Assembly (NCBI GenBank): GCA_963761305.1
Contig: CAVXGK010000002.1
Coordinates: forward strand, 2,848,001-2,912,000
DNA length: 64,000 bases
Direction: 5' to 3'
Source of the DNA: an uncultured Gemmatimonadaceae bacterium
Lineage (GTDB): Bacteria; Gemmatimonadota; Gemmatimonadetes; Gemmatimonadales; Gemmatimonadaceae
Positions 9,277 through 62,317 of the stretch are shown here, in pieces (position 1 is the stretch's first letter; the number at the start of each line of letters is the position of its first letter). Position numbers and translations under genes: made by a program. Below the pieces are notes generated by a model, which was not told where the DNA came from, did not search any database, and saw only the letters and a list, made by a program, of their open reading frames with translations.

Positions 9277-9523
9277 AACTGCTTTACCGCAGAGACGCGG
9301 AGACGCAGAGAACGGCCGCCGAGGACCGCCAAGCATTTTCGCGCCACGAGCCGTGATTTTTTTGGGAACTGCCGCTCGGGATGCGGCGATGCAGCACGAG
9401 GATTTCCACCCGATGGAAGCGTCCCGGAGCGGCGGTTCCCCAAAGATCCCGGCTCGTTGCGGGACGACGCTTGGCCTGTGCGGCCGTTTCTCTGCGTCCT
9501 CTGCGTCTCGGCGGTGAGCAGTT
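9277..9523. repeat. Nested palindromic element, copy 1
   Basis: AACTGC..CGCAGAGACGCGGAG ... ACGAGCCG ... GCCGCTCGGGA [loop] TCCCGGAGCGGC ... CGGCTCGT ... CTCTGCGTCTC..GCAGTT. Confidence 0.9.
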
Positions 9524-9760
9524 TGAATGCTCGGTGGCAGAAATGACGAACAGGAGTCTGGCGCCGCGCGTGAATTTCCCACCCACCCGTTCAGCGCGCG
9601 AACGCCAGAGCTCCTGTCGCCTTCTACACACGCCGCCGAATGACGTTTGGGGGGCAATCTGCGGCGCGCAATGAAATTACGAATTGCGCTGCGCGGCTGT
9701 TGGTAAAGATTCCACAAAGACGCCCCCCGATCGCCGTAACGCGCTGTGTATCAACGTTTT

Positions 9761-12700
9761 TTAGCGCGCCTCGACGTCGCTCAGACGAGCCAAACGTTTA
9801 CGAACGTCCGTCACCTGCGGCTGCAGCGCGGGATCGGCGTTCTTCCACAGGTCGAGGAATTTCGCATAGTAGTGCGCAGCCTTCGCGCGGTCGCCCTTCG
9901 CTTCAAACAACTCGCCGAGCCGTTTGTACGAGCCGGCGAGAAAAAATCGGTCCTGCTGGTAGCGTTGGAGAATCGACGTCGAATTCACATATCGCGTGAA
10001 CGCCTCGATCGCCGAATCGGGCATTTGCGCGAGGTCGAACGCCAAGCCCGTCGCGGGCAGGCGGCAGACCGTGCAATTCCCGATATCCGCAGCCTCCGAC
10101 TCGTGCGCCGAATCCAGATATCGGTGTTCCGCCATCGCAATCATACTCTCGATGGCGTGGCGCGTCCGAGACGCCGCCTCCTGCGTGTAGGCCGGCGAAA
10201 TCCGATCGAACTCCGTGAGCATGGACCGCGCGAGATCCGGCTTGCCCATCAAGGCGTACGCTTGCGCCAGGCCGCCGTACGGTCGATCGAGCGGCTGAAA
10301 ACTCGTCAGAGGCACGCGCCTCAGCGCATTCTGCACCATCGCGAGCGCCTTCGCCGTGTCATTGAGGAACCAAACGGCAACCAGCGCCGAGTCGACCGCG
10401 GACCCGAGCGCGGATTGCACATTGCCTTGCGCAATGTTGTACGCGGTGTTCAGCGCGGCCAGTCGCATCCCTTCGGCGATTTGGCCGCGCGTCGTCGCGA
10501 CGATGCCGGCGACCCCATTGCGTTGGGCCTTGAGGAACTCATCCGTCGGATTCGCCACGGACAGGGAATCCATGAATGCGATCGTGCTGTCGTACTGCCC
10601 GCGCGCGAACAAGTACGTCGCCCGGCCCATCGCGACGCGCGGATTGTTGGCGGAGACCTTCAATACAGTAGCTGCCGTCGAGTCCACCGCCGACCACTTT
10701 CCGAGCTCCGCTTCGTTGGTGATCAAGTTGTTGTAGCTCGTGACCGCCGCGGGATTCGACGCGACCGCCCGCCGCAACAACGCCGCGGCCGAATCGAACT
10801 GTCGCTGATTCGCGTAGAGCAAGGCGAGGTTGTTGAGCGCCGCAGCCTGCGTCGGCCGGATCGACAGCAGCTTCTTGTAGGCATCGGCCGCCTTCGTCTC
10901 GTTGGGATGCGGCCCCTGCGTCCAGTACGTCGCCACCGCGAGCCAGCGCTCCACTTCCGGCAAGCGCGCGGTGTCCGCGTACGCCCGCTCCATCGCCGCG
11001 ATTTGACCCTCACGGTCCAACCCGCGATTCGAGAGCGCGACGGCGAGGGCGCGATAGGCCGACGCGAATCCCGTGTCGATCTTCACGGCTTCCTTGAACA
11101 ACGGAATCGCCTTGTCGGGGTCACCCTGAGTCATCGCGCGCTGCGCCGCAGTGTACTTCTCCAGGGCATCGATCGACGCGGTCGTGACCTGAGCGAGTTC
11201 GGCCGACGCCTGCACGTGTTTGAGCGACTCGCCCATTTGCCGCCGCAGCGACCGCGTGAGACCGCCGATCGTCGGGATGAGATCCCTCGCGCCATTCGCG
11301 CTGCCGGTGAGCAACGCGAGATTCTGGCCGGAGTCCGCGCCGACCAGGCGCATCGTGACGACGAAGCCGCCGCTCGCCAGCGAATGGACTTCGCCGGTGA
11401 CGATCGCCTTCGCGCCCTCGCGCCGCGCCACGACGCGCGCCACCGCCGTGTCGATCGGTGTGTTCGCCGCCCGCTGCATGAGCTGGAGATCCGCGGCCAC
11501 CGCCTGCGGCGTGATGATCGAAATGACCGGCGACTGCCCGAGGTCCGCCCGAACCGCCTCGGCAATGACGCTCCCGAGCGTGGTGTCGGATCCGGTCGAT
11601 GCGAAATCGCCGATGAGAATCTTGTCGCGGTCGTGCAGCTGGCCGCTCGCCATGAGCGACTTGAGCGGGCCGAGTCCGAGCGGCCGTAGCAGCATGAGCA
11701 CGACGACGAGCAGCGCGAAGCTGCCGATCGCGCTCGCCATGAATCCGCCGGCGTGCCGCCAGGAGAGGTACGGACTCGCCCGGACCGCGATCGTCGACAT
11801 CGTCGCCGGCGCGGAGGCGGATGCCGTCGCCGTTCGAGGCGTCGACGCGGTAGCCCGACGCGTCACACGCTGCACGTAGGCCGTCGCGAGGATGACCGGA
11901 ATGCCGAACGCCATGATCCCGATCGTCGCCGGCACGACCCAATCCGGAACGCCGAACGCGACTTCCGCCGCCTTCGCAAGAATGACCGCCGCGGCGAACG
12001 CGACGACGTAGCTGATCGACGCACGCCGAAGACCTCCCGGACGGCTCGCGCCCGACAGCGACGCCGTCGAACCCGTCGACACGGCGTCGAGCACGCGCGC
12101 GATGTCGGCGGCGCTCTGGGGCCTCGCGTCCGGATCCTTTTCCAGACACTGCATGACGACGTCGGCGAGCACCGCCGGCGTGTCGGGACGCGGATCGAGA
12201 ACGGGCTGCGGCTTCGTGCCCATGTGCGCCGCGAGCAGCTTGTGCGGCGATGGCTCGTTGAACGGCGGCCGACCGGTCAGCATCTCGTACGCCATGCAGC
12301 CGAACGAGTAGATGTCGGCGCGATGGTCCGTGCTCGGATCCGCCGCGGCCTGCTCGGGCGCCATGTACGCCGGCGTTCCAATCGACATGCCGAGCTGCGT
12401 CAGCGCGCCGGCGGGAGATCCGGCGAGCGTGTCCGGCGCGCGGGCCGCGGTGATGGCTTTCGCGATTCCAAAATCGGTGACCGTCGCCGACGCGCCGCTG
12501 ATCAGCACGTTGTCGGGCTTGATGTCGCGATGGACGACCCCGCGCTCGTGCGCGTAGGCCAACGCGCGCGACACGTCGCGCAAATAGCTCACGCACTCGG
12601 CGATCGGGATCGGGCCGGCGGCCAGCCGCGCGCGAAGCGACTGGCCGTCGATGAACGGCATCGTGTAGAACGGCACGCCGTCCATCTCGCCGGCCGTGAG

Positions 12701-12931
12701 CACGGGCACGATGTGCGGATGCTGCAGGTTCGCCGCGACCTGGATCTCGCGATTGAACCGGTCGACGTTGACGCCCGCGCCGAGCTCCGCCGGCAGCACC
12801 TTGATCACGACCTTGCGGCCGAACGCGGTTTCCGTCGCCGCAAACACGCGCGACATGCCGCCGCCGCCCAGCTCGCGATCGATCTGGTATGCGCCGCCCA
12901 GCAGCGTCTGGAGTTGTTCGCGAAGCTCCAT
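9761..12931 (-). CDS. Membrane-anchored Ser/Thr protein kinase with C-terminal TPR domain
   Basis: LGGGGMSRVF, HRDIKPDN, DFG, GTPAYMAPE; TM segments; TPR-like C-terminus. Confidence 0.92.
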   Translation of the reverse strand: MELREQLQTLLGGAYQIDRELGGGGMSRVFAATETAFGRKVVIKVLPAELGAGVNVDRFNREIQVAANLQHPHIVPVLTAGEMDGVPFYTMPFIDGQSLRARLAAGPIPIAECVSYLRDVSRALAYAHERGVVHRDIKPDNVLISGASATVTDFGIAKAITAARAPDTLAGSPAGALTQLGMSIGTPAYMAPEQAAADPSTDHRADIYSFGCMAYEMLTGRPPFNEPSPHKLLAAHMGTKPQPVLDPRPDTPAVLADVVMQCLEKDPDARPQSAADIARVLDAVSTGSTASLSGASRPGGLRRASISYVVAFAAAVILAKAAEVAFGVPDWVVPATIGIMAFGIPVILATAYVQRVTRRATASTPRTATASASAPATMSTIAVRASPYLSWRHAGGFMASAIGSFALLVVVLMLLRPLGLGPLKSLMASGQLHDRDKILIGDFASTGSDTTLGSVIAEAVRADLGQSPVISIITPQAVAADLQLMQRAANTPIDTAVARVVARREGAKAIVTGEVHSLASGGFVVTMRLVGADSGQNLALLTGSANGARDLIPTIGGLTRSLRRQMGESLKHVQASAELAQVTTASIDALEKYTAAQRAMTQGDPDKAIPLFKEAVKIDTGFASAYRALAVALSNRGLDREGQIAAMERAYADTARLPEVERWLAVATYWTQGPHPNETKAADAYKKLLSIRPTQAAALNNLALLYANQRQFDSAAALLRRAVASNPAAVTSYNNLITNEAELGKWSAVDSTAATVLKVSANNPRVAMGRATYLFARGQYDSTIAFMDSLSVANPTDEFLKAQRNGVAGIVATTRGQIAEGMRLAALNTAYNIAQGNVQSALGSAVDSALVAVWFLNDTAKALAMVQNALRRVPLTSFQPLDRPYGGLAQAYALMGKPDLARSMLTEFDRISPAYTQEAASRTRHAIESMIAMAEHRYLDSAHESEAADIGNCTVCRLPATGLAFDLAQMPDSAIEAFTRYVNSTSILQRYQQDRFFLAGSYKRLGELFEAKGDRAKAAHYYAKFLDLWKNADPALQPQVTDVRKRLARLSDVEAR

Positions 12932-13077
12932 TCAGCGGCGCTCGAAACCTCACAGGGGGAAGACCGTCGGCGAACCTGCCCGAGGCCGGGAAAGCGCCCT
13001 TAAGCTAGGAAAGACGCAGAGGCCCGGCCAGTCGGAGCGCGTTTCGCCACCGACGCGCCGACACGCTCATTACAGCG

Positions 13078-14511
13078 TCAGACCGGCTGCGCGATGGGTT
13101 CGAGCGCGTCGGCGCGGAGCTCGCTCGCGGGCAGGCGCAGCTCGAACACGGCGCCGCCGCCTTTGCGCGACGTGTAGCTCACCGACCCACCTTGGATCTG
13201 CGCCAGTGTGCGGGCGATCGACAGACCGAGTCCCGCCCGTGCCGCCGCATCGGGCGCCGAGCCGGCGGCTCGGTAAAACGGCTCGAAGATCCGACCGCGA
13301 TCCGCGTCCGGAACTCCCGGGCCGCGATCCGATACCGAGAAGACGATCTCGTCTCCGTCGCGCCGCGCCGCCAGCTCGACGGCTTCCAACGGCGGCGAAT
13401 ATCGCGCCGCGTTCTCGAGGAAGTTTCCGAGCACGCGCAGTGATTGCGCGAAATCGAAAAAGCCGACGAGAGCCGGGCTGTCGAGATCGATCACGGCGCG
13501 CACGGGTCGGCCGTTGAACAACCCACGGGTCTGCCGGACCGCCGCGCCGATGAGATCCTCCGCGGTGTTGAGCTCCGGTATCGCCGAAAAGCCGCCGCTC
13601 TTCAAGCGCGACAGGTCGAGCAGGTCACTGACGAGCCGCGTGAGGCGGTCGGCCTGTTCTTCGATCGCCGCCGCGCCCTCGCTGCCTTGCAGCGCTTCGC
13701 TCTGCGCGAGCGCCTTGATCGTGGTGAGCGGCGTGCGCAAGTCGTGCGACACCGACGCCAGTACGATGTCCTTCAATCGGTCCGCTTCGCGAAGGGCTTC
13801 GGCGCGCTCCGCTTCGGCGACGAGCCGCACGCGATCGAGCGCGAGCGCGGCGTAGTACGCGATGGCGTCGAGAAATCGTTTGTGCGCCGCGTCGAGCGCG
13901 ACCGGAGCCGCGTTGGCGAGGCGCAGCGCGCCGACGGAGCGGTCCTGCACCGTCAGCGGGATCACGACCTCGCGCACCCGGCCGTCGGCGGTGGCGTTCC
14001 AGAGAGCTTCCACGCGCCCGGTGTTGGCGGTGATCGAGCACTCCGACATCCCGAGCGCGGTCTTGATGATGTCGGCGATTCGCGACGGCGCGTCTTCGGC
14101 GCGTCCGGCGCTCAAGGTCTCCGATCCGAGTCGCGCCAGCGACTCGACCTCGACGGTTCGGCGCCGCGCTTCCTCAGCCTCGCTGCGCGCGCGCGCCAAG
14201 AGGTTCGTCGAGACCAGCGCGGTGACCAGGAACGCGATCAGCGCCAGCCAATCGAGCGGCTTCCCGATCGCCACTTCGCCGTACGGCGGCTGAAAGTAGT
14301 AGTCGATGAGAACGAAGCCGGCACACGCCAGCGTGATTCCGAGCGCGCGCCCCGAGCTCGCGCTCGCGAACAGCACGATCAGCAGGTACATGAGCACGAC
14401 ATGCACCTGGTCGAAATCGCCGCGAAACTGGATCATGACCACGGTCACCGCCGTCGTGACGGTGATCGCCAGTCCCCATGTCAGGGCCTGGCGACGGGCG
14501 AGCTTCGACAC
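13078..14511 (-). CDS. KdpD-like sensor histidine kinase (DUF4118 TM + HisKA + HATPase), lacking N-terminal KdpD/Usp domains
   Basis: 4 TM segments with DYYFQPPY, SVSHDLRTPLT, ENAARYS, DRGPG, GLGLSI; GTG start 2 nt after KdpE-like stop. Confidence 0.85.
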   Translation of the reverse strand: MSKLARRQALTWGLAITVTTAVTVVMIQFRGDFDQVHVVLMYLLIVLFASASSGRALGITLACAGFVLIDYYFQPPYGEVAIGKPLDWLALIAFLVTALVSTNLLARARSEAEEARRRTVEVESLARLGSETLSAGRAEDAPSRIADIIKTALGMSECSITANTGRVEALWNATADGRVREVVIPLTVQDRSVGALRLANAAPVALDAAHKRFLDAIAYYAALALDRVRLVAEAERAEALREADRLKDIVLASVSHDLRTPLTTIKALAQSEALQGSEGAAAIEEQADRLTRLVSDLLDLSRLKSGGFSAIPELNTAEDLIGAAVRQTRGLFNGRPVRAVIDLDSPALVGFFDFAQSLRVLGNFLENAARYSPPLEAVELAARRDGDEIVFSVSDRGPGVPDADRGRIFEPFYRAAGSAPDAAARAGLGLSIARTLAQIQGGSVSYTSRKGGGAVFELRLPASELRADALEPIAQPV

Positions 14512-14513
14512 GC

Positions 14514-15254
14514 TCAGCGCGGTTGCTCGACGCGGTACCCCACGCCGGGCTCGGTGATGATGATCTGCGGCGTCGCCGGGTCGACTTCGATCTTTCGCCG
14601 CAGATTGGTGATGTGAACGCGCAGGTACTGTTGAGGACTTCCGAATTCGCGGTCCCACACGGCGTCGAAGATCTGCTGGTGGGTCAACGTGCGTCCGGCG
14701 GTGCTGAGCAGCGTCGCCAGGATCTGCCATTCGATGGGCGTGAGGTGGATCGGCACTTCGTCGCGTGACACGCGGCGGTTGATCGTGTCCACGATCAACG
14801 ACCCGATGACCACGGGCGCGGTGCTCGCGCCGGCGGCGAATGTCTTCGCGCGGCGAATTTGCGCTTTGGCGCGCGCCGCCAGCTCGAGTACGCTGAACGG
14901 CTTCGTCACGTAGTCGTCCGCGCCCGCGTTGAGCAGGTCGACCTTCTCGTGCTCGGAGTGACGTGCCGACAGCACGATGATCGGGACCGCGGAGCGCCGG
15001 CGGATCTCGCGGCACACGTCCACGCCGGCCATGTCCGGCAGTCCGAGGTCGAGCACGACCAGATCGGGGTGCGCCGACGTCGCCGCGTCCACGCCTTCGG
15101 CACCGTTCGCCGCTTCGTCGACTTTCACCGTGACGTCGCGCAGCGCGTCGCGCACCGCGCGGCGAATCTGCGGCTCGTCGTCGATGATCAGCACGAGATC
15201 GGCATCCGGTACGGCGGACGACCTGAACGGCGGGGCGTCGGTTTCCGCGGTCAT
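14514..15254 (-). CDS. kdpE: KdpE-like OmpR-family response regulator
   Basis: IDDEPQIRR, LDLGLPD, AGADDYVTKPF, QYLRVHITNLRRKIE, ITEPGVGYR. Confidence 0.85.
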   Translation of the reverse strand: MTAETDAPPFRSSAVPDADLVLIIDDEPQIRRAVRDALRDVTVKVDEAANGAEGVDAATSAHPDLVVLDLGLPDMAGVDVCREIRRRSAVPIIVLSARHSEHEKVDLLNAGADDYVTKPFSVLELAARAKAQIRRAKTFAAGASTAPVVIGSLIVDTINRRVSRDEVPIHLTPIEWQILATLLSTAGRTLTHQQIFDAVWDREFGSPQQYLRVHITNLRRKIEVDPATPQIIITEPGVGYRVEQPR

Positions 15255-15381
15255 AGCGAAAAAGTGGCTCATCGTTCGCTGGCCGGCACGACTGTTGGCA
15301 TTTCTTAGCGCAACGCGAGGCGCCGCGGAACGGCCCGTTTGCGAGACGGTCGTGGGCACGGATTCTGTTCCTGGTCGGTGC

Positions 15382-15759
15382 ATGACTCGGCAGCTCCTTT
15401 TTTCAATTGCGGCGAGCGCGGCTCTCGCCGCTGTCGCCTGCGACACGAACCCGCGAAATCAGATCGCTCTGGTCGGCCCACCTGTGATCGATACGGTGGT
15501 CTCGAACGGGGCGTTGATCATCACGCCTTCGTTCGTTCAAGTCGACGCCGGGAGCATCGTGCAGCTCTCGACGCCAGCGGGCACGTTCGCCCCGGACCTC
15601 ATTTGGGAATCGGACCGACCGTCCGTCGCATCGGTGTCGCAAACCGGCCTCGTAACGACCCTGCTCCCCGGAACAGCAACCATCACCGCCCACTTTTCGT
15701 TCGACCCGCTCACCCGCGGCTTCGCAACGATCGTCGTGACGCCCTTCGGCAACCCGTAG
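15382..15759 (+). CDS. Lipoprotein with Ig-like (Big_2) domain
   Basis: Lipobox AVAC; WESDRPSVASVSQTGLVT..PGTATITA. Confidence 0.75.
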   Translation: MTRQLLFSIAASAALAAVACDTNPRNQIALVGPPVIDTVVSNGALIITPSFVQVDAGSIVQLSTPAGTFAPDLIWESDRPSVASVSQTGLVTTLLPGTATITAHFSFDPLTRGFATIVVTPFGNP

Positions 15760-15812
15760 GGAGATCCGCTATCACAGCACCCATCGAGGCCGCCTCGTGT
15801 TTAATTATATGA

Positions 15813-16205
15813 GTGCGCCTCGATCGAAAACTGCTGCTCATCGCGCCGGCCTTCGTGCTGGCCCTCGTCGTCGCCGGAATGGTCTACACCGCGACCGAGC
15901 TTCAGGTTCTCGTCCAATCCAACGAGACCATCGCCGGGCGAAAAAGCTTCGTTGACGCGGTGGTCCGCGGCGAGAAGCCGCTCGACCGACAGCAGGCCGT
16001 TGGGATTCTCCAGGTGGCCCTCGACGTCGAGGCCAAGCGCAGCGCGGCCATCGTCGCGACGCGCGACCTGCTCATCGAGCTGGCCGCGGTAGCGCTCGTC
16101 GCCTGGGTCGTGCTCGCCATCGGCATTCGGGGCGTTCCGCGCGAACATTGGCCGCGTTTCGGACGCTCGCCGACAACGGACGCGGCGCGGCCGGAAAGCG
16201 GGTGA
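15813..16205 (+). CDS. Hypothetical membrane protein (2 TM)
   Basis: 130 aa ORF with two hydrophobic helices, fits between neighbours. Confidence 0.65.
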   Translation: MRLDRKLLLIAPAFVLALVVAGMVYTATELQVLVQSNETIAGRKSFVDAVVRGEKPLDRQQAVGILQVALDVEAKRSAAIVATRDLLIELAAVALVAWVVLAIGIRGVPREHWPRFGRSPTTDAARPESG

Positions 16206-16218
16206 CGCCCTCCGCGCG

Positions 16219-17394
16219 ATGACCCACCGCCACTACTACACCGACGCGTACCGGCGCGAATTCACCGCGACCGTCCTCGAGCGTAGCGCCGACGGGACCC
16301 GGCTCTACCTCGACGAAACCGCCTTCTATCCGACCTCCGGCGGCCAGCCCCACGACCTCGGGACACTCGGCGGCGTCGACGTGGTCGATGTCGTGGACGA
16401 GGATTCGCGAATCGCCCACGTCGTGTCCCGCCCGATCGACGCGGTCGAGCCACGGCTCGTCGGGCGCATCGACTGGACGCGGCGCTACGACCATATGCAG
16501 CAGCACACGGGGCAGCACCTGCTCTCGGCGGTATTCGAGGACCTGTTCGGCGCCAGGACAGTGAGCGTGCACTTCGGCCCCGAGTCGTCGACGCTCGACC
16601 TCGACGTCGAAGGCCTCACGCGCGAGCAGATCGTCACGGCCGAGTCGCGGGCGAACGACGTGGTCGGCGAAGCGAGGCCCGTGTTGGTGACGTTCGAAGA
16701 TGCCGCGACCGCGCAGGGACTCCGCAAGGCGTCCGAGCGGGCGGGCACGCTGCGCATCGTGTCGATCGAAGGCGTGGATCGGAGCGCCTGCGGCGGAACC
16801 CACGTTCGCACGACGGCCGAGATCGGGGCTGTGCTGGTCCGGTCGTCGGAGAAGGTTCGCAAGACGACCCGCGTCGAATTCGTCTGCGGCCGCCGCGCGC
16901 TGCGTCGCGCACGCCGCGACCTCGAGGCGCTGTCCGCCATAGCCGGGTCGCTGTCGTCGTCGCTCGACGACGCGCCGGCCGTCGTCGCCACGCAAAGCGA
17001 GCGCCTGCGCGACGCGGACAACGTGCGCAAGAAGCTCGACCGCGAGTTGAGCGCGTATCGCGTGCGCGAGCGTTACGACGCGACGACGCCCGATGCGGCC
17101 GGCGTGCGCACCATCGTCGTGCGCGACGCGGCGTCGATCGACGAGTTGCGCGCGCTCGCGCAGGCGGCGTTCGCGCTGCCGCGCGCCGTCGTCGTCGGGT
17201 CGTTGGCCTCGCCGCCGTCCGTGCTGCTCGCGTCGTCGGAAGATTCCGGCGTCGATGCGGGCAAGCTGTTGAAGGAGCGACTGGCCGCCGTCGGCGGACG
17301 TGGCGGCGGTTCGCCGCGCCTCGCGCAGGGGAGCGTTCCCGACGCGAGCGCCGTCGAGTCGGTCGTCGCCGCGCTCGTCAGCCGCGGCGGCTGA
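16219..17394 (+). CDS. Alanyl-tRNA editing protein (AlaX-like with DHHA1 domain)
   Basis: FYPTSGGQPHD, HMQQHTGQH, CGGTH, GGRGGG..AQG. Confidence 0.9.
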   Translation: MTHRHYYTDAYRREFTATVLERSADGTRLYLDETAFYPTSGGQPHDLGTLGGVDVVDVVDEDSRIAHVVSRPIDAVEPRLVGRIDWTRRYDHMQQHTGQHLLSAVFEDLFGARTVSVHFGPESSTLDLDVEGLTREQIVTAESRANDVVGEARPVLVTFEDAATAQGLRKASERAGTLRIVSIEGVDRSACGGTHVRTTAEIGAVLVRSSEKVRKTTRVEFVCGRRALRRARRDLEALSAIAGSLSSSLDDAPAVVATQSERLRDADNVRKKLDRELSAYRVRERYDATTPDAAGVRTIVVRDAASIDELRALAQAAFALPRAVVVGSLASPPSVLLASSEDSGVDAGKLLKERLAAVGGRGGGSPRLAQGSVPDASAVESVVAALVSRGG

Positions 17395-18466: not shown

Positions 18467-18612
18467 GTAAGGAATCTATGAGCCCGTCTGGCCGTCTTGT
18501 CACTCGCACATTGAGTTTTCCCTTCCCGTCTTCATACTTCTGAGAATCGCCTCGACACGCCCGCCGCCGGGCGTCGACGAGGGCCCGGCCTCCTTCTCCC
18601 ACGGGTGGCGTC

Positions 18613-21545: not shown

Positions 21546-21552
21546 CGCGGGA

Positions 21553-21600
21553 GGACGGGTGGACGGGTGGACGGGTGGACGGATGGACGGATGGACGGAT
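21553..21600. repeat. Tandem 8-mer repeat (GGACGGGT)x3 (GGACGGAT)x3
   Basis: Read directly; same unit occurs twice on the reverse strand near 63921-63938. Confidence 0.95.
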
Positions 21601-27954: not shown

Positions 27955-27979
27955 CTCCCTCTTTCGGGGCGATTCGTGA

Positions 27980-28223
27980 AACTGCTCGACGCAGAGACGC
28001 GGAGAAACCGCTGAGGACATGCCGAGTCCGTCGCGCAACGAGCCGGGATTTTTGGGGGAACAGCCGCTCGGGATGCATCGCGATGCGTGGTACCTTCGCC
28101 GATGCGTCGAAGCATCCCGAGCGGCTGTTCACAAAAACATCCCGGCTCGTTGCGCGACAGAGCCGGCTTCAGCGGCAGTTCTCTGCGTGTCTTGCGCCCT
28201 CTGCGCCTCTGCGTCGAGCTGTT
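27980..28223. repeat. Nested palindromic element, copy 2
   Basis: AACTGCTCGACGCAGAG ... GTCGCGCAACGAGCCGGGAT ... AACAGCCGCTCGGGATGC / GCATCCCGAGCGGCTGTT ... ATCCCGGCTCGTTGCGCGAC ... CTCTGCGTCGAGCTGTT. Confidence 0.92.
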
Positions 28224-50098: not shown

Positions 50099-50125
50099 CG
50101 CACTCCGAGCCGACACGGGCAAACC

Positions 50126-51509: not shown

Positions 51510-51513
51510 TGCC

Positions 51514-52275
<762 letters not shown>

Positions 52276-52311
52276 GCGTGGCGGCCTGGCCTCTATCGGG
52301 GCGGCCTGCTG

Positions 52312-52558
52312 AACTGCTTTGACGCAGAGGCGCGGAGAACTGCCGCAGAGGGACACTCGAGGCTCCGTCGCGCGACGAGCCGGGATTTTTGGGGGAACAG
52401 CCGCCCGGGAAGCTTCCGACGCCGTGGAGGCTTCGCCGCGGATCGATGGTTCCCGAGCGGCTTTAACAAAAACATCCCGGCTCGTCGCGCGACGGAGCCT
52501 GTCCTCCGCGGCTGCTCTCTGCGTCTCTGCCTCCTCTGCGTCTCTGCGTCAAGCAGTT
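52312..52558. repeat. Nested palindromic element, copy 3
   Basis: AACTGCTTTGACGCAGAG ... AGGCTCCGTCGCGCGACGAGCCGGGAT / ATCCCGGCTCGTCGCGCGACGGAGCCT ... CTCTGCGTCAAGCAGTT. Confidence 0.92.
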
Positions 52559-52618
52559 GCAGTTTCAGAGGTAAGCGTTAAGCAGTTGCAGCTTCAGCGC
52601 TCGAACGCCAGCAGATCG

Positions 52619-53065: not shown

Positions 53066-53119
53066 TGAGGAAGATTCACATGGTTGACAGTCGAGCGATC
53101 ACGGGGTCACGCCACGAGG

Positions 53120-53485
53120 TCACTCGTCACGCACGAGCGCCAGGATCGCCGCTTGGGGCACGACGAGATAGCGGTCGCCTTCGAAAGTGATCTCGACCGC
53201 CGCCTTGCGGAAAAAGAGCGCGTAGTCGCCGGTCTTGGCCTGCATCGGAACGAACCGTGTTGCCCGTTCGCCCGCGCCGGTCTGCCACGGTTCGTCGGAG
53301 AACGAATCGAGGCTCGGCATCGGAAGACCCGGGCCGGTCGCCACGATCTTGCCGCCCTGCACCGCCTGGTTGTCGATCGCCGTCGGAGGAAGGTACAACC
53401 CGACGGTCGTACGTTCCTCGCCTTCCTCCACGCGCACCAGCACGCGGTCGCCGACGACGATGAGCTCTTTGTCTCGCTTGATCAT
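53120..53485 (-). CDS. GroES/Cpn10-family co-chaperone (orphan, long type)
   Basis: GDRVLV, GLYLP, ATGPG, GDYALF; CAGGAG RBS. Confidence 0.82.
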   Translation of the reverse strand: MIKRDKELIVVGDRVLVRVEEGEERTTVGLYLPPTAIDNQAVQGGKIVATGPGLPMPSLDSFSDEPWQTGAGERATRFVPMQAKTGDYALFFRKAAVEITFEGDRYLVVPQAAILALVRDE

Positions 53486-53527
53486 GGGTCGCTCCTGACT
53501 CAGGTGCTTTGGCGGATCCGTCAAAAG

Positions 53528-54871: not shown

Positions 54872-54934
54872 GCAAACGATCGCTCTCGGACGGCGTGACG
54901 GCTAGAAGCCGGACCGGTGGACGAAGTCGACCAC

Positions 54935-54982
54935 AAAAAATCAGCGGGATGGACCGTATCCAACCGGCACACCCCGCTGATT
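54935..54982 (-). terminator. Rho-independent terminator on minus strand
   Basis: Minus strand AATCAGCGGGGTGTGCCG-GTTGGATA-CGGTCCATCCCGCTGATTTTTT. Confidence 0.75.
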
Positions 54983-55070
54983 GTGCTTTCGGAGATCAGG
55001 CCGACCCCCACCCGAGTCAACGCAACCTCAACGAAAGCGACCTTCTGTTGTCCACCGACGATCAGTACAC
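54935..55070 (-). ncRNA. Candidate ECF-dependent small RNA (~130 nt)
   Basis: Bounded by AGGGT-N15-TGTC site (55078-55101) and a terminator; no ORF with RBS. Confidence 0.45.
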
Positions 55071-55077
55071 GCTTCTA

Positions 55078-55101
55078 GACAAGGACGTTGGGGCGAACCC
55101 T
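55078..55101 (-). promoter_or_regulatory. Putative ECF promoter site 3
   Basis: AGGGT tcgccccaacgtcct TGTC. Confidence 0.6.
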
Positions 55102-55114
55102 GACGTTTTTCTCG

Positions 55115-56029
55115 TTACTGGCAATTAAGATGTCCAAACGGTAGGGGCAGCGTGCAGTTCTGCGTATTGCCGTCTTCGGTGATCACGACCTTCGCCGTCG
55201 CCGAACCGTCGTACGTGATGACTTCGCGTCGCGAAGACGTGGCCGGCGACTGGCCCGAGAGCGTCATCGTCACCGACATCGAGCGGATGATCGTGCCCGC
55301 GGTCGGATACGGCGGATGGCTCAACGCCGCGGTGCCGACAGGGATCACGATGCCGGTGATGGTGTCGCCGGCCATGCGCTGCGCGGTGAACGCTCCCATC
55401 GACGAGGTGCCCGTCGTGTTTTCCGATCCGGCCGATACGCCGTCGACCTTTCGTTGCGTGCTGCCCCGCGCGAGACCACTGATCGTCTGACTGCTCGATT
55501 CGTTCACGTGCGTCGTGTCGCCGTCGTGGCGCGTCACTGTGCCCGTGACGCTGAAAGTGGAGACGAGGGTGTTCGTCGTGCTGTCGAATTTCGACTGCGG
55601 AGCGCCGCTCGCGTCGGTGAGCAAGTAGGTGCGAGTGACCGTGAGGCCGTTGTGCGCCTCTTTCGCGCACGTCACGACACCCGTGCTAGCGGACGTACAC
55701 GCGTTGCCTCGCATGACCACCCCGAGGCCGAAGCCGAGGAACGGCTGGCCCAGACCGCCCATGAATCCGATGCCGAAGCCGGCGCCGTGACCGAACAGGA
55801 AACGCGACAGCGGCCCGCGCCCTTCGAACAGCGGCGAGAACGGGTTATCGGTGTCCGAGGCATCGAAGCTGGTACTCAGATCGGAAAAGCCGGGCGGCAC
55901 GGTGGAGAACGCGGACGACGCGTCCAACAACGCCGCGCTGCCGCTATTCGGCGCGCTGCTGGAATCGCTGCTGCACGCGACGGTCACGGCGGCGGCGGCG
56001 AGGCAGGTCACGGTCACAATTCGTTTCAT
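55115..56029 (-). CDS. Ser/Thr/Gly-rich hypothetical lipoprotein
   Basis: Lipobox TVAC; beta-rich C-terminal part; AAGGA RBS. Confidence 0.78.
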   Translation of the reverse strand: MKRIVTVTCLAAAAVTVACSSDSSSAPNSGSAALLDASSAFSTVPPGFSDLSTSFDASDTDNPFSPLFEGRGPLSRFLFGHGAGFGIGFMGGLGQPFLGFGLGVVMRGNACTSASTGVVTCAKEAHNGLTVTRTYLLTDASGAPQSKFDSTTNTLVSTFSVTGTVTRHDGDTTHVNESSSQTISGLARGSTQRKVDGVSAGSENTTGTSSMGAFTAQRMAGDTITGIVIPVGTAALSHPPYPTAGTIIRSMSVTMTLSGQSPATSSRREVITYDGSATAKVVITEDGNTQNCTLPLPFGHLNCQ

Positions 56030-56059
56030 GGCTCACGTCCTTTGTCGAGTCCGAATGCA

Positions 56060-56083
56060 GACACGGCCTGCGTCTGCTACCCT
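56060..56083 (-). promoter_or_regulatory. Putative ECF promoter site 2 (lipoprotein)
   Basis: AGGGT agcagacgcaggccg TGTC. Confidence 0.65.
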
Positions 56084-56158
56084 CAGTTTGTCGTTTGGAC
56101 CGGCCCAGCGTTAACAAAAAAAACGAAATTCGGTCCCGACACGTTCTCGGACTGTGAC

Positions 56159-56710
56159 TTAGATCGCTGTCGTCTCAGGCAACCACGCGGCGAGGCGGTT
56201 GCGTAAGTGCTTCAGCGCCTTCCCCATCTGCGATTCGACCGTCTTGATCGAGATGCCGAGCGTCTCGGCGATTTCGGCGTAGCGCAATCCCTGTTCCCGG
56301 CTCAGCCGAAATACTTCGCGGCAGGCGGGCGGCAGCTCGGCGACCGCGGTCGTGATGGCGTCGCGCAGCTCCGCGGCGACGAGGCCCGAGGTTCCGGCCG
56401 CGGCGACGCTTTCTTCGCCGATGAGATGGGGTTCGGCGCGCTTCTGTACATTGGCGTGGCGAATCTGGTTCAACGCGCGATTGCGCGTGGACCGCACCAG
56501 GTAGGCGCGCAACGACTCCTGGATCATCACGGTTTGCCGGCGCCGCCAGAGCTCCAGCATCACTTCCTGTACGACGTCCTCGCTCGCGCTTCGATCATGC
56601 AACAGGCTCTGGGCCAGGATGACGAGGGCGGGGTAGTGCGTTCGGAAGATCGTGTCGAAGGCCGCCTGGTCGTCTCCTTTCAGGCGGTCGAGAAGCGCTC
56701 GGTCATCCAT
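56159..56710 (-). CDS. ECF RNA polymerase sigma-70 factor (FecI-like)
   Basis: EDVVQEV, YL..S.RNRALN, LP..CREVF.LSR..GL.Y.EIAETLGISIKTVESQM. Confidence 0.93.
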   Translation of the reverse strand: MDDRALLDRLKGDDQAAFDTIFRTHYPALVILAQSLLHDRSASEDVVQEVMLELWRRRQTVMIQESLRAYLVRSTRNRALNQIRHANVQKRAEPHLIGEESVAAAGTSGLVAAELRDAITTAVAELPPACREVFRLSREQGLRYAEIAETLGISIKTVESQMGKALKHLRNRLAAWLPETTAI

Positions 56711-56838
56711 GCCCGTATCGTGGGGCAGGACAAGCGCTCCAGGACGAGCTCAATCGCCGGCCAACTGTCCGCGGCAGCGTGGTTTCCGTATACTCCCGTC
56801 TCCGCGGGTGGACCGTGATCGGGGCCATGATTCGCATA

Positions 56839-56862
56839 AGGGTATACGTTTTCCGACGTGTC
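56839..56862 (+). promoter_or_regulatory. Putative ECF promoter site 1 (fecR, probably leaderless)
   Basis: AGGGT atacgttttccgacg TGTC, 8 nt before ATG. Confidence 0.65.
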
Positions 56863-56870
56863 GATAGGCC

Positions 56871-57941
56871 ATGACCGACGACGCTCATCACCAGTCCGGT
56901 ACGTCCGATTTCGTCCCGGATTGGGACATGCTCGCACGTTTCGTCGCCGGTGAAAGCTCGGTCGACGAAATCTCGCACGTCACCCAATGGCTGGACGCGA
57001 ATCCCGCCGAGCGGGCGTTGCTGGAGCGCTTGACCGAAGTCACCGCGGCAACCTCCGCGCCGGATGTCGACGTCGAGGCCGCGTTGGAACGGGTCCACGC
57101 ACGGATGGGTCAGGCCGCGACGCTGTCGATCGCCGAGAGGCCGACGCGGCGATCCTGGCGGCCGATGGCTTCGATTGCCCTGCTCGCCGCGGCCGCGGCG
57201 ATCGGGTTTCTCGTCGTATCGAAGCGGAAGGCCGGATCGTTCCGTGACAAGGCGGCCACGACGGTCGCGTCGCGCACGTACATGACGAGCTATGGCCAGC
57301 GCGACTCGATCGATCTGGGCGATGGCTCGCGCGTGGTGCTCGGACCCGACAGCCGCCTGACCGTTTCCGGCGGCTTCGGAACCAAGTCGCGGTCCGTCGA
57401 GTTGCGTGGAGACGCGTATTTTGACGTGCGCCATGACTCAGCGAATCCCTTCGCCGTGCGGGTTGGTTCGGCCCTCATTCAGGACGTCGGCACGACGTTC
57501 ACCGTCGAGAGCGACGACGCCAACGCGACCGTGGTGACCGTTGTAACTGGGAGTGTGCGGCTGCGGACCATGCAATCCGCGGCCAGTGCGGGCGTCGTTC
57601 TTGCTGCGGGGGAGCGTGGATCAATCGACGACGCGGGGCGTACCAGCATGGAGCGCTCGCCCTCGCCCGACGATGACGTTGCCTGGACGACGGGCAAGCT
57701 CGTGTTCCGCGACGCACTCTTGTCGCGCGTGGCGGCCGAGGTTCATCGCTGGTACGGAGTTCGATTGCACGTGGATGACCCATCGCTCTTGTCGCACCAT
57801 GTCACGACGACTCTGCTCACGAATCAATCGGCGGATGAGGTGCTTCACATTCTCGAGCTCGAGCTCGGCGTGCGAATCGAGCGTCAAGGCGACTCGGCGG
57901 TGGTCATGAACGGACGGAGCTCCGTGTCCCCGCCCCGGTGA
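56871..57941 (+). CDS. FecR-family anti-sigma factor
   Basis: One TM; LGDGSRVVLGPDS, GDAYFDV.HD..PF.V, GTTF, WTTGKLVF. Confidence 0.92.
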   Translation: MTDDAHHQSGTSDFVPDWDMLARFVAGESSVDEISHVTQWLDANPAERALLERLTEVTAATSAPDVDVEAALERVHARMGQAATLSIAERPTRRSWRPMASIALLAAAAAIGFLVVSKRKAGSFRDKAATTVASRTYMTSYGQRDSIDLGDGSRVVLGPDSRLTVSGGFGTKSRSVELRGDAYFDVRHDSANPFAVRVGSALIQDVGTTFTVESDDANATVVTVVTGSVRLRTMQSAASAGVVLAAGERGSIDDAGRTSMERSPSPDDDVAWTTGKLVFRDALLSRVAAEVHRWYGVRLHVDDPSLLSHHVTTTLLTNQSADEVLHILELELGVRIERQGDSAVVMNGRSSVSPPR

Positions 57942-60478
57942 TCGCCACGCGTTCGCGGGTATGCTATCTCAGCGCGAGCACCGTAATGGTGCTCGCGTTC
58001 GCGCGTTCAATGGACGCTCAAACGCGCGCGTGTCAGGCGACGCCCGTCGATTCTTCGGCCGCCGCCGCCCCCACGTGGGCGCCCCCGCTGGACCGATCGA
58101 TCAGCCTTCGAGCGATCAATCTTTCGCTGCGCGACGCGCTCGATCGAGTCGCGACGACGGCACGCATCCGCCTGTCGTACAGCGCCGAGCAATTGCCCCT
58201 CGACCGCGTAGTGTGCGTTTCGGCAGAGGGGTCTCAGGCTGGTCGTGTGCTGTCCGATCTGCTGAACGGAACGAACGTCTCGCCGGTCGTCGTCGGCAGC
58301 GATCAGGTCGTTCTCGCGCCGCGGCTGCGGTCGGCCCGATCCGAGGCGCCGCCGATGGCGCCGACGCTCGGCGTGCTCGACCGCGTCGTCGTCACGGGAA
58401 CCGCGACCGGCGCGCCGGCGAAGGAACTGTCCGTCGGACTCGGCGTCGTGAACGGCCGCGCGCTGTCGCGCGACAACACGACTACGATCTCCGACGCGCT
58501 CGACTCGTACGTGCCCGGCATGTGGTCGTGGGCTCAGTCGCCGTCGAGCATGTTGAGCTCGTACGCGAGCATCCGCGGCGCCAGCTCGTTTGGATTGAGC
58601 TATCCAAAGATCTACATCGACGGGATCGAGGTCGCGAACCCGCTGCTGCTCAGCCGCTTCAATCCGGGCGCGATCGATCGCATCGAAGTGGTTCGCGGCC
58701 CGCAAGGTGCCGCGCTCTACGGCGCGGACGCGATCAGCGGCGTGGTGAACATCGTGACGCGTCACGACGGCTCCGACGGCGACGGCCCGCAGGCCGCGAT
58801 CCGCTCGACGGCCGGCGTGTCGCAGAGCTCCTACGCGCGCGACGTCGTGGCGCAGGATCACGCGCTCTCGTTCGTCACCGGCACGAGCACGCGGTCGGCC
58901 GATCTGCACGTGAGCGGGTCGACGCTCGGCGCCTTCGTGCCCAACGGATACAGCCGCGACATCATGGCGTCCGGCGGCGGGCGGATCGTCGGCAGCTCCG
59001 GCACGCTCACGACGACGGCGCGTCTTTTCTTCGAGCAGGCGGGAGTTCCATCGAGCCCGCTGGTGCAAGCGCCGGTGTCCAACTCATCGCCGGGCGGTTC
59101 CTCGTCGATGATGCCGGCCACCAACACCTCGCCGCAGACGGTCACCGAATACACGCTCGGCACGACCGCGATGCGCGCGTCCGATCAGAACACTGTCGAT
59201 TCGTTCATCATCGGCGTCGACGGGTACCGTCTCGCCAACGTCCAGACGAACTACACGCCGGTGCCGAGCATCGTCGACTCGGCGTTGCGCGCGGCGCAGG
59301 GCGGCGCTGACCGCGCGACGCTGCGCGCGACCCGCGTGATTCATTTCCGCGGCGACGATCCGACGCGCGGTTCGCTCACGCTCTCCGCCGAACACGCCAC
59401 GCTGCGCGCGTCAACGGTGGCTTCGTCGGCCTTCATCGTCGGCAGCCGCGGCGTAGGCAGTCAGGGTAGCCCCGGCGGCCCGAACGGCCAAACCGGCCAG
59501 CAGCAGCTGCTCGAGCCGATGGTCAGCTGGCAGAACAGCACTGGTGTCACGGCGCAGGCCAACGCCGCGCTCGACAACGCGCTGTTCTTCACGACGGGCG
59601 TAAGGCTCGAGGAAGACAGCCGCCTCGCTGCCGGCGATCGCGTCGTCAAGCTGCCGATGGTAGGAGTGTCGGGCGTGAACGACTTCGGTCCGTTCACGAT
59701 GAAACTGCGCGCCGCGTACGGCCGCGGCATTCGTCCGCCGAGCACCGCGGAGCGCTGGCAACTGTGGCAGCCGCAGACGGCCTCACAGGCGGCGTTGGGA
59801 CCGGAAGTGCAGTCGGGCACCGAGGTCGGCCTCGACTTGACGTTCCATCGAGCGCTGACGCTGCAGCTCACGCGGTTCGATCAGCGCGCGTCCGGGCTCA
59901 TCCAGCAGGTCCCGTTCGCGTCGGACAGCGCGGTCACCGGCCGGCGGATGGAGTACGTCGCGCAGAACGTCGGCGAGATCTCGAATCAGGGATGGGAGCT
60001 CGGCGCCACGAGCTCGTGGTCGCGGCTGACGATGAACGCGTCGTTCGCCTCCGTAGACAGCCGCGTGCGCCGGTTGGCTGACGGCTACACCGGCGATCTC
60101 GCGACCGGCGATCGAATGCTGCAGGTCCCGGCGATCACGGCGAGCTTCGGCGCCGCGTGGACGGGCGAGACGTGGTCGACGTCCATCGGCGGAACGCGCG
60201 CCTTCGACTGGATCAACTACGACGAGGTGGCGCTCGCGCAGGCCGGGATGTCGGGAACCCAGCCCGTTCAGGGCCTGGTCGGCCCCTCGCTGCGTAGCTA
60301 CTGGCGCCAATACACGGGTGGACTCCACCTCCGCGCGAGCGTCTCGCACGACATCCGGCGCGACTTCGCCGTCGAGATGTCGGGCGACAATCTGCTGAAC
60401 TACCAGCGCGGCGAGCCGGACAACATCACGATCATCCCCGGCCGGACGATCATGACGGGAGTTCGCGTTAACTTCTAG
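57938..60478 (+). CDS. TonB-dependent receptor with N-terminal signalling (STN-like) domain
   Basis: GTGA overlap with fecR; VVVTG, IRG, YIDG, IEVVRGPQGAALYGADAISGVVNI; terminal Phe. Confidence 0.88.
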   Translation: MIATRSRVCYLSASTVMVLAFARSMDAQTRACQATPVDSSAAAAPTWAPPLDRSISLRAINLSLRDALDRVATTARIRLSYSAEQLPLDRVVCVSAEGSQAGRVLSDLLNGTNVSPVVVGSDQVVLAPRLRSARSEAPPMAPTLGVLDRVVVTGTATGAPAKELSVGLGVVNGRALSRDNTTTISDALDSYVPGMWSWAQSPSSMLSSYASIRGASSFGLSYPKIYIDGIEVANPLLLSRFNPGAIDRIEVVRGPQGAALYGADAISGVVNIVTRHDGSDGDGPQAAIRSTAGVSQSSYARDVVAQDHALSFVTGTSTRSADLHVSGSTLGAFVPNGYSRDIMASGGGRIVGSSGTLTTTARLFFEQAGVPSSPLVQAPVSNSSPGGSSSMMPATNTSPQTVTEYTLGTTAMRASDQNTVDSFIIGVDGYRLANVQTNYTPVPSIVDSALRAAQGGADRATLRATRVIHFRGDDPTRGSLTLSAEHATLRASTVASSAFIVGSRGVGSQGSPGGPNGQTGQQQLLEPMVSWQNSTGVTAQANAALDNALFFTTGVRLEEDSRLAAGDRVVKLPMVGVSGVNDFGPFTMKLRAAYGRGIRPPSTAERWQLWQPQTASQAALGPEVQSGTEVGLDLTFHRALTLQLTRFDQRASGLIQQVPFASDSAVTGRRMEYVAQNVGEISNQGWELGATSSWSRLTMNASFASVDSRVRRLADGYTGDLATGDRMLQVPAITASFGAAWTGETWSTSIGGTRAFDWINYDEVALAQAGMSGTQPVQGLVGPSLRSYWRQYTGGLHLRASVSHDIRRDFAVEMSGDNLLNYQRGEPDNITIIPGRTIMTGVRVNF

Positions 60479-60500
60479 CCTCGTGAGATTCCACGAGGAC

Positions 60501-62039
60501 ATGATGACCGCCACCGCGACGAGGACGAACGCGGACGCGTCTCCCGAGACCGCGCTTCCCACAATCGATCACTGGATCGACGGCGCGACGAGTGCCGGCA
60601 CGTCGGACCGATTCGGTCTCGTCTACAATCCCGCGCGCGGCGCGCCCAGTGCGCGCGTGCGCTTCGCGGCGGCGGCGGACGTGGATCGCGCGGTCGACGC
60701 CGCGACGGCGGCCTTCGCGACGTGGAGCCGCGCGGGCCTCGGAAAGCGTGCGACCGTGCTGTTCAAGTTCCGTGAACTCGTCGAGCGGCACGCCGAGGAG
60801 CTGACGCGGTGCATCGTGCGCGAGCACGGCAAAGTGCTCGCCGACGCGCGCGGCGAGGTGCAGCGCGGACTCGAGGTGGTGGAGTTCGCGTGCGGCATCC
60901 CGCATCTCGCCAAGGGCGAATTCTCCGAGAACGTGTCTTCGAACGTCGACAGCTACTCCATTCGACAGCCACTCGGCGTCGTCGCCGGGATCACGCCGTT
61001 CAACTTCCCGGTGATGGTGCCGATGTGGATGTACCCCGTCGCCATCGCCGCGGGGAACGCGTTCATCCTCAAGCCGTCGGAGAAGGATCCCTCGGCATCG
61101 ATGCTGATGGCCGAGCTCTGGCGCGAGGCTGGTTTGCCGGCGGGTGTGTTCAACGTCGTGAACGGCGATCAGGCGGCGGTCGAGCGAATCCTCGAGCATC
61201 CGGGCATCGCGGCGGTGAGCTTTGTCGGATCGACGCCGATCGCGCGCCACATTTACGAGACCGCGACCTCTCACGGCAAGCGAGTGCAGGCGCTCGGCGG
61301 CGCGAAGAATCACATGATCGTGCTGCCCGACGCGGACATGGAGCTCGCGGCGGATTCCGCGGTGAACGCGGCGTTCGGCTCGGCCGGCGAACGATGCATG
61401 GCGATCTCGGTGACGGTCGCGGTGGGAGACGCGGCTGATCGGTTGGTACCGCTCGTCGCGCAGCGAATGCGCGCGATCAGGGTAGGCGACGGCCTCGATC
61501 CGAAGAACGACATGGGCCCGCTGGTGACGAAGCAGCACCTCGACCGCGTGCGTCGCTACGTGGACGAAGGCGTCGCGGCCGGCGCATCATTGGTCGCCGA
61601 CGGACGCGGCACGACGCCGCACGACGGCGATGGGTTCTTCCTCGGGCCGTGCCTGTTCGATCACGTGGGCACGGAGATGTCGATCTATCGCGACGAGATC
61701 TTCGGCCCGGTGTTGTCGGTGGTGCGCGCACGCTCGTACGACGACGCCGTGGCGCTGGTGAACGCGAATCCATACGCGAACGGCGTGGCGATCTTCACGA
61801 ACGACGGCGGCGCGGCGCGACGATTCCAGAACGAAGTGCAGGTAGGGATGGTCGGCATCAACGTGCCGATTCCCGTGCCGATGGCCTACTACTCGTTCGG
61901 CGGATGGAAAGCGTCGTTGTTCGGCGACGCGCACGTGCACGGCATGGAAGGCGTGAAGTTCTACACGCGCGGGAAAGTCGTGACGGCGCGGTGGCCGGAT
62001 CCAAGTCTGCGGGGGAAGAATCTCGGCTTTCCGACCTAG
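60501..62039 (+). CDS. mmsA: CoA-acylating (methyl)malonate-semialdehyde dehydrogenase
   Basis: ITPFNFP, KPSEKDP, FVGST, GGAKNH, GERCMA, EIFGPV, GINVPIPVP. Confidence 0.92.
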   Translation: MMTATATRTNADASPETALPTIDHWIDGATSAGTSDRFGLVYNPARGAPSARVRFAAAADVDRAVDAATAAFATWSRAGLGKRATVLFKFRELVERHAEELTRCIVREHGKVLADARGEVQRGLEVVEFACGIPHLAKGEFSENVSSNVDSYSIRQPLGVVAGITPFNFPVMVPMWMYPVAIAAGNAFILKPSEKDPSASMLMAELWREAGLPAGVFNVVNGDQAAVERILEHPGIAAVSFVGSTPIARHIYETATSHGKRVQALGGAKNHMIVLPDADMELAADSAVNAAFGSAGERCMAISVTVAVGDAADRLVPLVAQRMRAIRVGDGLDPKNDMGPLVTKQHLDRVRRYVDEGVAAGASLVADGRGTTPHDGDGFFLGPCLFDHVGTEMSIYRDEIFGPVLSVVRARSYDDAVALVNANPYANGVAIFTNDGGAARRFQNEVQVGMVGINVPIPVPMAYYSFGGWKASLFGDAHVHGMEGVKFYTRGKVVTARWPDPSLRGKNLGFPT

Positions 62040-62089
62040 TCCCGGGGAGCAGGGCCCCCGGGGGGAACTGCAACAACTGCCAAAACTGC

Positions 62090-62317
62090 AACTGCTCGAC
62101 GCAGAGACGCAGAGGTTCTCGGACTGCGCTGCGATTTGTGCGCAACGAGCCGAGAATGCTTTGGGAACGGCCGCTCGGGACGCTTCGTAGCGCGGTCCCG
62201 GCATCGGTGACGTCCCGAGCGGCTTTAACAAAAAATCCGCTCGTCGCGGGCCGACGCAAGCTGGTGTGCAGTTCTCTGCGTCTCTCTTTCACCTCTGCGT
62301 CTCTGCGTCGAGTCGTT
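62090..62317. repeat. Nested palindromic element, copy 4 (most diverged), preceded by extra AACTGC units
   Basis: AACTGCTCGACGCAGAGACGCAGAGG / CCTCTGCGTCTCTGCGTCGAG; GCCGCTCGGGACG / CGTCCCGAGCGGC. Confidence 0.88.

Follow-up and report, generated by a model that had tools for sequence, protein, structure and literature searches.

The 64,000 nucleotides analysed here (the window; contig CAVXGK010000002.1, positions 2,848,001 to 2,912,000, from an uncultured Gemmatimonadaceae bacterium) contain four copies of a nested palindromic repeat whose outer arms also enclose, elsewhere in the same genome, an intact gene for a small GxxExxY protein with a predicted nuclease fold. We read the window repeats as gene-less members of a cassette system bounded by inverted arms, in which the nuclease would trigger replacement of whatever lies between the arms, and give this reading a probability of roughly 0.55. 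Because relatives differ between the same arms at the same spots, it is likely that a previously undescribed selfish system swaps DNA in place and does not hop as a transposon would. What is new here is comparative evidence for in-place cassette exchange and for modular nesting; we found no description of a GxxExxY-arm system in the open literature, and subscription papers and supplements could hold one.

The four copies and their parts are placed in the window as follows:

9277..9523, + strand: copy 1, with A-type outer arms (AACTGC plus tandem CGCAGAG units), inner core and loop, between a 543-aa open reading frame (ORF) and a convergent Ser/Thr kinase gene.
27980..28223, + strand: copy 2, in the convergent gap between a cytochrome-c-like ORF and an S9-type peptidase gene.
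28035..28153, + strand: inner core module of copy 2, consisting of the ACGAGCCGGGA layer, a T/A tract, the GCCGCTCGGGA layer and the loop, separable from the outer arms.
27957..27971, + strand: degenerate outermost motif (CTCTATCGGG type) adjoining copy 2.
52312..52558, + strand: copy 3, between a 253-aa ORF and a convergent brxA/brxB bacilliredoxin gene.
52287..52303, + strand: outermost motif (CTCTATCGGG type) adjoining copy 3.
62090..62317, + strand: copy 4, downstream of a methylmalonate-semialdehyde dehydrogenase gene; further AACTGC-type hexamers lie in tandem outside the element, at about 62065-62345.

All four lie exactly where a preliminary description of this stretch had put them and, by the asymmetry of the inner part, on the + strand. 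They are gene-less nested palindromes of 228-247 bp with a mean column identity of 76%, and the covarying arm pairs that had been proposed are present in the sequence. Copies 3 and 1 fold into the proposed single rod (copy 3 at -165.6 kcal/mol, z -11.9; copy 1 at -168.6 kcal/mol, z -14.3; 0 of 200 shuffles as low). The four lie 29, 25, 36 and 50 bp after an upstream + strand stop codon, three of them in convergent gaps, as had been described, and one in a tandem gap. The unit reaches slightly further out than the ends that had been given, to the outermost CTCTATCGGG-type motif, which stands in degenerate form outside one arm in 9 of the 30 full copies of the source genome (those at 27959 and 52291 in the window included). 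An Rfam scan of the window at gathering thresholds returned 0 matches.

That source genome (G000; 5.2 Mb, 93% complete) holds fewer copies than the hundreds extrapolated from the window: an iterated profile search found 40 places, comprising 30 full copies, one match whose outer arm differs and nine that are partial. The full copies occur in both orientations (18 +, 12 -), so that the common orientation, true within the window, is a local accident; the gaps that hold them are convergent for 17, tandem for 10 and divergent for 3. Convergent gaps are thereby enriched (17/30 copies against 126/823 gaps of at least 250 bp, on our own gene calls). Eleven of the 40 matches cluster in 68 kb (G000:C1:1647648-1715284), where the most similar pair (90%) lies 1.6 kb apart.

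Covariation was assessed on 29 full copies, the thirtieth being left out for its tandem expansions, and on a structure assigned by hand from the alignment, since RNAalifold missed the middle helix. Pairing holds in 88.5% of cells. Cells changed on both sides number 52 against 31.3+-4.9 in shuffled alignments (0/500) and the covariation score is 0.123 against 0.096 (0/500), but the number of pairs with a double-sided change, 16 against 13.8 (89/500), is not significant; the covariation claimed earlier thus stands by the first two measures and not by the third. Overall, the data support a non-autonomous, REPIN-like hairpin family in which structure is kept while sequence changes. The other suggestion of the preliminary description, a multicopy structured RNA, fared worse. 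G-U pairs are nearly equal on the two strands (188 vs 177), copies in tandem gaps lie 4 sense and 6 antisense, the forward strand folds more stably in 19/30 copies, and at orthologous sites the orientation is not constant. There is no strand bias, which makes a strand-specific RNA unlikely.

The link to GxxExxY genes that had been suggested is supported, in that the CGCAGAG outer arms of the hairpins are also the arms of an intact TIGR04256/PF13366 gene (G000:C2:2215363-2215743, 126 aa), which lies between secY and adk, outside the window. The CTCTATCGGG-type outermost motif also flanks this cassette, and the Shine-Dalgarno-like GGAG of the gene sits in the left arm. An outward promoter composed of the arm end and the outermost motif was looked for by consensus scan, and none was found at the gene. 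The alignment-based structure model (predicted local distance difference test, pLDDT, 91; single-sequence prediction 45) suggests a PD-(D/E)XK restriction-endonuclease-like fold (top Z 8.2, root mean square deviation, rmsd, 3.2, 99 aligned). Hjc (1gef) matches the model with Z 6.6, rmsd 3.1 and 86 aligned, level with many other PD-(D/E)XK proteins; no sequence relative was found in the PDB, Foldseek gave no match at E<=0.001, and no structural relative stands out. The predicted active site is intact: across 120 homologues E28 and D68 are invariant and E78 and K80 are kept at >=90%, and all four are present in 9/9 of the genes compared more closely. Nonsynonymous divergence (dN) is 0.18-0.27 against a synonymous divergence (dS) of 1.2-2.4 or saturated (10 pairs), adk having a dS of 0.36-0.84. 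By these sequence comparisons, the GxxExxY protein is under purifying selection and its catalytic residues are retained.

The GxxExxY family (PF13366) is very large, 7993 of 8000 scored candidates having passed in our homologue search, and is listed as of unknown function in PMC3424549. We surveyed 78 homologous loci from many phyla for arms, 2 of 80 being left out because their flanks were short. Upstream and downstream flanks match each other in reverse-complement orientation at 63/78 loci as against 1/290 shifted controls, a threshold also reached by 10.8% of mismatched locus pairs and, in direct orientation, by 18/78 loci. Arm type follows protein clade in that AG-type arms accompany 70/88 proteins of one clade and 0/23 of the other, in a quick tree with 35 rows left unclassified. 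The source genome has six GxxExxY genes; their arms are of several types, and dispersed hairpins accompany each; the five beyond secY-adk (C1:1120087, C2:1973716, C2:2302118, C1:1110908 and C2:151842) have each their own arm type, one of them carrying an internal stop and one being broken, and inverted pairs of the B, C and D types number 17, 14 and 10.

Motif and gene are coupled across the genus, for whose genomes a host tree was built with FastTree. Among 31 genomes, adk was found in 27: the A-armed gene is next to it in 11, a gene-less hairpin in one (G003), and neither in 15. Exact A motifs number 5-61 in the 11 gene carriers and 0-2 in the 15 genomes without the gene, and in the sister pairs G004 vs G043 and G011 vs G001 the gene and the repeats were lost together. 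A second motif, CACAGAG, was predicted beforehand for G001, G004, G007 and G011 from the arms at four loci; it occurs 5, 30, 11 and 4 times in these, respectively, and once in the other 27 genomes. This suggests that repeat abundance depends on the cognate gene, as for REPIN and RAYT, with few independent contrasts. In G013 the secY-adk site (L221) has an ORF resembling isopentenyl-diphosphate isomerase (label by eye) in place of the cassette.

Exchange in place is most evident at secY-adk. Between relatives, identity is 94-100% along the flank, drops at the left arm to about 58-78% and rises again beyond the outer motif, also where the flanks are non-coding. Among G017, G005 and G019 the secY end is 97-98% and adk 89-91% identical, as against 65-69% for the GxxExxY gene, and in the comparison of G022 with G024 the values are 98% and 85%, the gene being the lower; the host topology is rejected for the gene (approximately unbiased test, p=0.004). 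In G003 the A arms and outer motif are kept around a gene-less hairpin of ~430 bp with four layers, among them the inner core seen in the window.

Turnover of the interior at fixed sites is also seen where hairpins alone are compared. Six relatives contributed 70 copies, among the matches listed: 39 occupy 14 sites that are also filled in the source genome, 15 lie at sites empty there and 16 could not be placed. Orientation was called from two independent markers, which agree in 36/39 doubly called copies (calls from the whole-element hidden Markov model, 20 flipped and 19 same, were dropped as noisy), and it changes at 9 of 13 assessable shared sites, one of which shows the opposite orientation in five relatives alike. 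A source-genome variant is present in 26/28 copies of that genome, the alternative in 57/65 of the relatives' copies. The source-genome copies are about as similar to their orthologues (0.73) as to other copies (0.71), and their best match lies in the same genome for 20/30 and is the orthologue for 0/13. The copies that G022 and G024 have at one site are only 71% alike, the other 11 shared sites giving 79-95% and flanks 91-98%.

The window sites differ in history. At copy 1, G022 and G024 carry the A family, G017, G015 and G005 a B-family hairpin, and G019 neither. At copy 2, the inner part has the opposite orientation in G019 and G022, the innermost layer is missing in G017, another interior is found in G024 and short remnants in G005 and G015; more distant members of the genus have unrelated hairpin families or nothing there. 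Copy 3 has kept place and orientation in G017, G019, G015, G024 and G022, with a 12-bp mini-palindrome in G005. The copy 4 site is empty in G017, G005, G015 and G022, and in G019 has a hairpin of the type linked to four-helix-bundle genes. The preliminary description did not bring out that the layers are modules which can be separated, nor that the copies are long-standing residents of fixed sites with an exchanged interior.

It is very hard to attribute these differences to sequencing or assembly, although stable hairpins may be skipped in library preparation and several relatives are error-rich assemblies. Metagenome contigs of X1 and X2, two soil runs of one study, do skip 110 bp of the copy 2 core (28042-28151), which may be such a library artefact. 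Replaced interiors differ in sequence and not in orientation alone, the losses in G005 are found in an assembly of 3 contigs that keeps other copies, and at one site five relatives share the opposite orientation.

The same sites bear on a more conventional view, in which the nuclease moves whole hairpins by REPIN- or MITE-like cut-and-paste or peel-and-paste and the swaps are independent insertions at tolerant hot spots. We consider this unlikely. The outer flanks and the outermost motif stay put while the interior changes, and at one site the gene itself is replaced. To our knowledge, no strand-transfer chemistry is known for a lone 126-aa PD-(D/E)XK domain. Target duplications, expected if the repeats were miniature inverted-repeat transposable elements (MITEs) as had been suggested, were not found either: flanking repeats of at least 5 bp occur at 0/30 copies within 3 bp and at 1/30 within 10 bp (controls 0.7% and 5.9%), with the AACTGC ends taken as element ends, beyond which the true ends may lie. 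Insertion would account for the 15 relatives' copies at sites empty in the source genome, for the absence of copy 4 from four relatives and for the preference for convergent gaps. The linkage and co-occurrence of gene and arms also resemble those of RAYT and REP (PMC3686654).

Set beside the hairpin doublets (REPINs) formed by repetitive extragenic palindromes (REPs) and their associated tyrosine transposases (RAYTs), our repeats share inverted arms that enclose the cognate nuclease gene at one constant locus, dispersed extragenic hairpins without the gene, compensatory changes, several families per genome and an abundance that follows the gene (PMC3116915, PMC3686654); an inverted doublet forming an extragenic hairpin with compensatory changes is what we find. 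The enzyme is different, RAYT being described there as an HUH/Y1 protein and ours having a predicted PD-(D/E)XK fold; no RAYT/Y1 (PF01797) match was found in the source genome at its 93% completeness, and a DUF559 search gave one weak partial match. The same sources describe REPs as palindromic with a GTAG/GTGG tag (PMC3116915, PMC3686654), unlike the arms here, which are tandem 8-10-mers: the A arms are non-palindromic CGCAGAG units behind AACTGC and lack a 5' tagged palindrome. The hairpins here are moreover 240 bp long with swappable nested layers, and the gene is replaced between its own arms. With bacterial MITEs such as Correia, ERIC, Nezha and Chunjie, as portrayed in part of PMC3184786, they have in common a length below 400 bp, terminal inverted repeats, a stable long stem-loop and ends shared with a gene-bearing form, and the gene-less core folds as expected. 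They differ from that portrayal in showing no target-site duplication and in a partner that is not a transposase (PMC3184786), the gene between the shared ends encoding a GxxExxY protein and not an insertion sequence (IS) transposase. The interior is likewise no gene remnant and the copies are old and divergent, in contrast to what that source describes (PMC3184786).

A role in the host has also to be weighed. The hairpins could be selected at transcript ends, where they would stabilise RNA or terminate transcription from both sides; ordinary recombination and template switching would keep them homogeneous, and the nuclease gene would be a passenger. The closeness to stop codons, the 39 relatives' copies at 14 shared sites, the unrelated hairpins with which other lineages fill the same sites and the covarying arms all fit such a role, which we nevertheless regard as improbable: strand preference is absent, several relatives have no hairpin at these sites, and a purely structural role does not predict conserved motifs that track cognate genes.

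The modular nature of the layers is clearest from the inner core, whose motif is found in 28/31 genus genomes, including those without A arms, and which other arms, of several types, enclose both in relatives and in 65 metagenome contexts; viral contigs gave 0 matches to the inner-core pattern. In G023 the inner half of the core lies outside C-type arms beside a GxxExxY gene. Among relatives one locus, L037 (G003:C259), has a GxxExxY gene within the inner core, in a three-layer nest of other outer arms, inner core and an outermost-type motif directly around the gene; since the outermost-type motif is here innermost, the order of modules can be permuted. We infer that hairpin tips received insertions repeatedly and that genes were lost afterwards, with which the pattern is consistent. 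The inner-core loop is 12 or 16 nt long in 45/52 measurable metagenome contexts (L255-L334); the 16-nt class has a conserved 8-nt tip, and in the clade of the source genome the loop is expanded to about 43 nt.

A parallel is provided by small PF05635 four-helix-bundle genes, with 10 matches at 9 loci in the source genome (L046-L055: G000:C1:1510596, 796595, 1106721, 1526087 and 31056; C2:78536, 2381411, 37073 and 1513599), most with their own inverted tandem arms. These too have dispersed gene-less hairpins, among them 34 inverted pairs of the GGTGGAC type. Features of these and of the B family also occur in the window:

2661..2753, strand not assigned: sister-family B hairpin with CGCAGATG arms, tied to the GxxExxY gene G000:C1:1120087.
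21553..21600, + strand: GGTGGAC-type tandem array, the arm type of a four-helix-bundle gene; in G017 and G022 an A-type element occupies this site.
10-75: a mini-palindrome of GACGTCAG type together with GGTCCACC units, both of them arm types that belong to four-helix-bundle genes.

In intervening sequences of 23S rRNA, a long stem ends in a loop that holds a small PF05635 four-helix-bundle ORF. The genes just described share with them an ORF in a long stem, whereas the sites here are intergenic and not in rRNA. An RNA-level element may be envisaged, with arms that pair once transcribed, a stem that undergoes processing, and spread by way of reverse transcription, the nuclease nicking the target. 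The gene-in-a-stem architecture, the GGAG in the left arm and the presence of one reverse transcriptase gene in the source genome agree with it. We think it highly improbable, as strand bias is absent and retrotransposition would not give exchange in place with fixed flanks; the reverse transcriptase is found among IS-like genes and is unlinked to any cassette. This sole reverse transcriptase (G000:C1:820702-821943, 413 aa) has by eye a group II intron-like N-terminus and lies between IS3-like pieces.

Returning to arm-bounded replacement, we suggest the following course of events. A cassette would consist of inverted arms of tandem 8-10 base units around either a GxxExxY gene or a nested hairpin stack. 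The nuclease would bind the arm units, which are phased, and cut them; its substrate would probably be an extruded cruciform or a single-strand hairpin. Host recombination would then mend the break, using as donor a second cassette whose arms match. As the arms are inverted repeats, the donor could align either way round, and repair bounded by arms would yield swaps, inversions and genome-wide homogenisation with no target duplications. Concentric layers could arise when one cassette inserts into the tip of another and the gene is then lost, stem deletions stripping layers again, and long-lived copies behind stop codons may secondarily act as transcript-end hairpins for the host. Such a scheme covers exchange at occupied sites, the first colonisation of new sites being outside its reach.

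Homing endonucleases, which include PD-(D/E)XK types such as I-Ssp6803I, offer an analogy in that a small nuclease gene disagrees with the host tree at one locus and its spread is ascribed to break repair. The homing-like signature seen here by comparison is allele turnover at one site. In contrast to homing genes there is no intron or intein and each genome has many gene-less arm pairs; the inverted arms would supply the homology.

Several observations weigh against arm-bounded replacement by the nuclease. Every link between nuclease and arms is a comparative one. Gene-tree bootstraps are weak (42-89), and faster mutation of a low-GC gene enclosed in a hairpin could explain part of the high dS. 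Among the relatives alone, 35/42 same-site pairs keep their orientation and 6/42 are flipped, and best matches are usually orthologues, so that copies among them appear mostly vertically inherited. The copies are old, with a median pairwise identity of 70% and a maximum of 90% among the 30 full ones and no recent burst, and no near-identical donor was found in the same genome for replaced copies, best matches being about 0.72-0.88. The counts that couple gene and motif are not independent because the carriers form only two clades. Within these counts, G003 has 21 A motifs without a gene at secY-adk (the gene being replaced), G023 has an A-like armed gene elsewhere yet only 2 motifs, and G008 has 92 motifs and only two GxxExxY matches, its secY-adk site not having been recovered (nor was that of G042, with 42 A motifs). 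Frameshifts interrupt the gene in the assemblies of G022 and G024, and in G005 its upstream arm is missing. No ORF was found in the inner-core loop in the 65 distinct metagenome contexts (80/101 stretches). Finally, the arms need no nuclease in cis, because the unrelated four-helix-bundle genes share the architecture; a mobiliser could act in trans on both families.

With some hesitation, as something that may well prove wrong, we propose that GxxExxY nucleases represent a new class of selfish elements, in which arms serve as recognition code and portable homology, hairpins as landing pads, and families including the four-helix-bundle one insert into each other's tips. If true, this would be a transposase-free, homing-like mode of spread with arm-programmed specificity across many phyla. 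PF13366 would gain a candidate substrate in its own arms, a specificity rule whereby arm type goes with protein clade, and an outcome open to test, namely exchange, inversion or loss between arms, and a 126-aa arm-directed nuclease could serve as a tool. The mechanism by which REP-like repeats spread with RAYT is given as unknown in PMC3686654. Their spread becomes testable from a new side, because a second, unrelated enzyme shares the architecture.

Two further families of long inverted repeats (about 200 and 280-300 bp) with near-identical arms, to which no gene was linked in this study, occur in the source genome at G000:C1:16960-17359 and 1010907-1011102 and at C2:1702748-1703035, 3366941-3377546 and 3387521-3395858.

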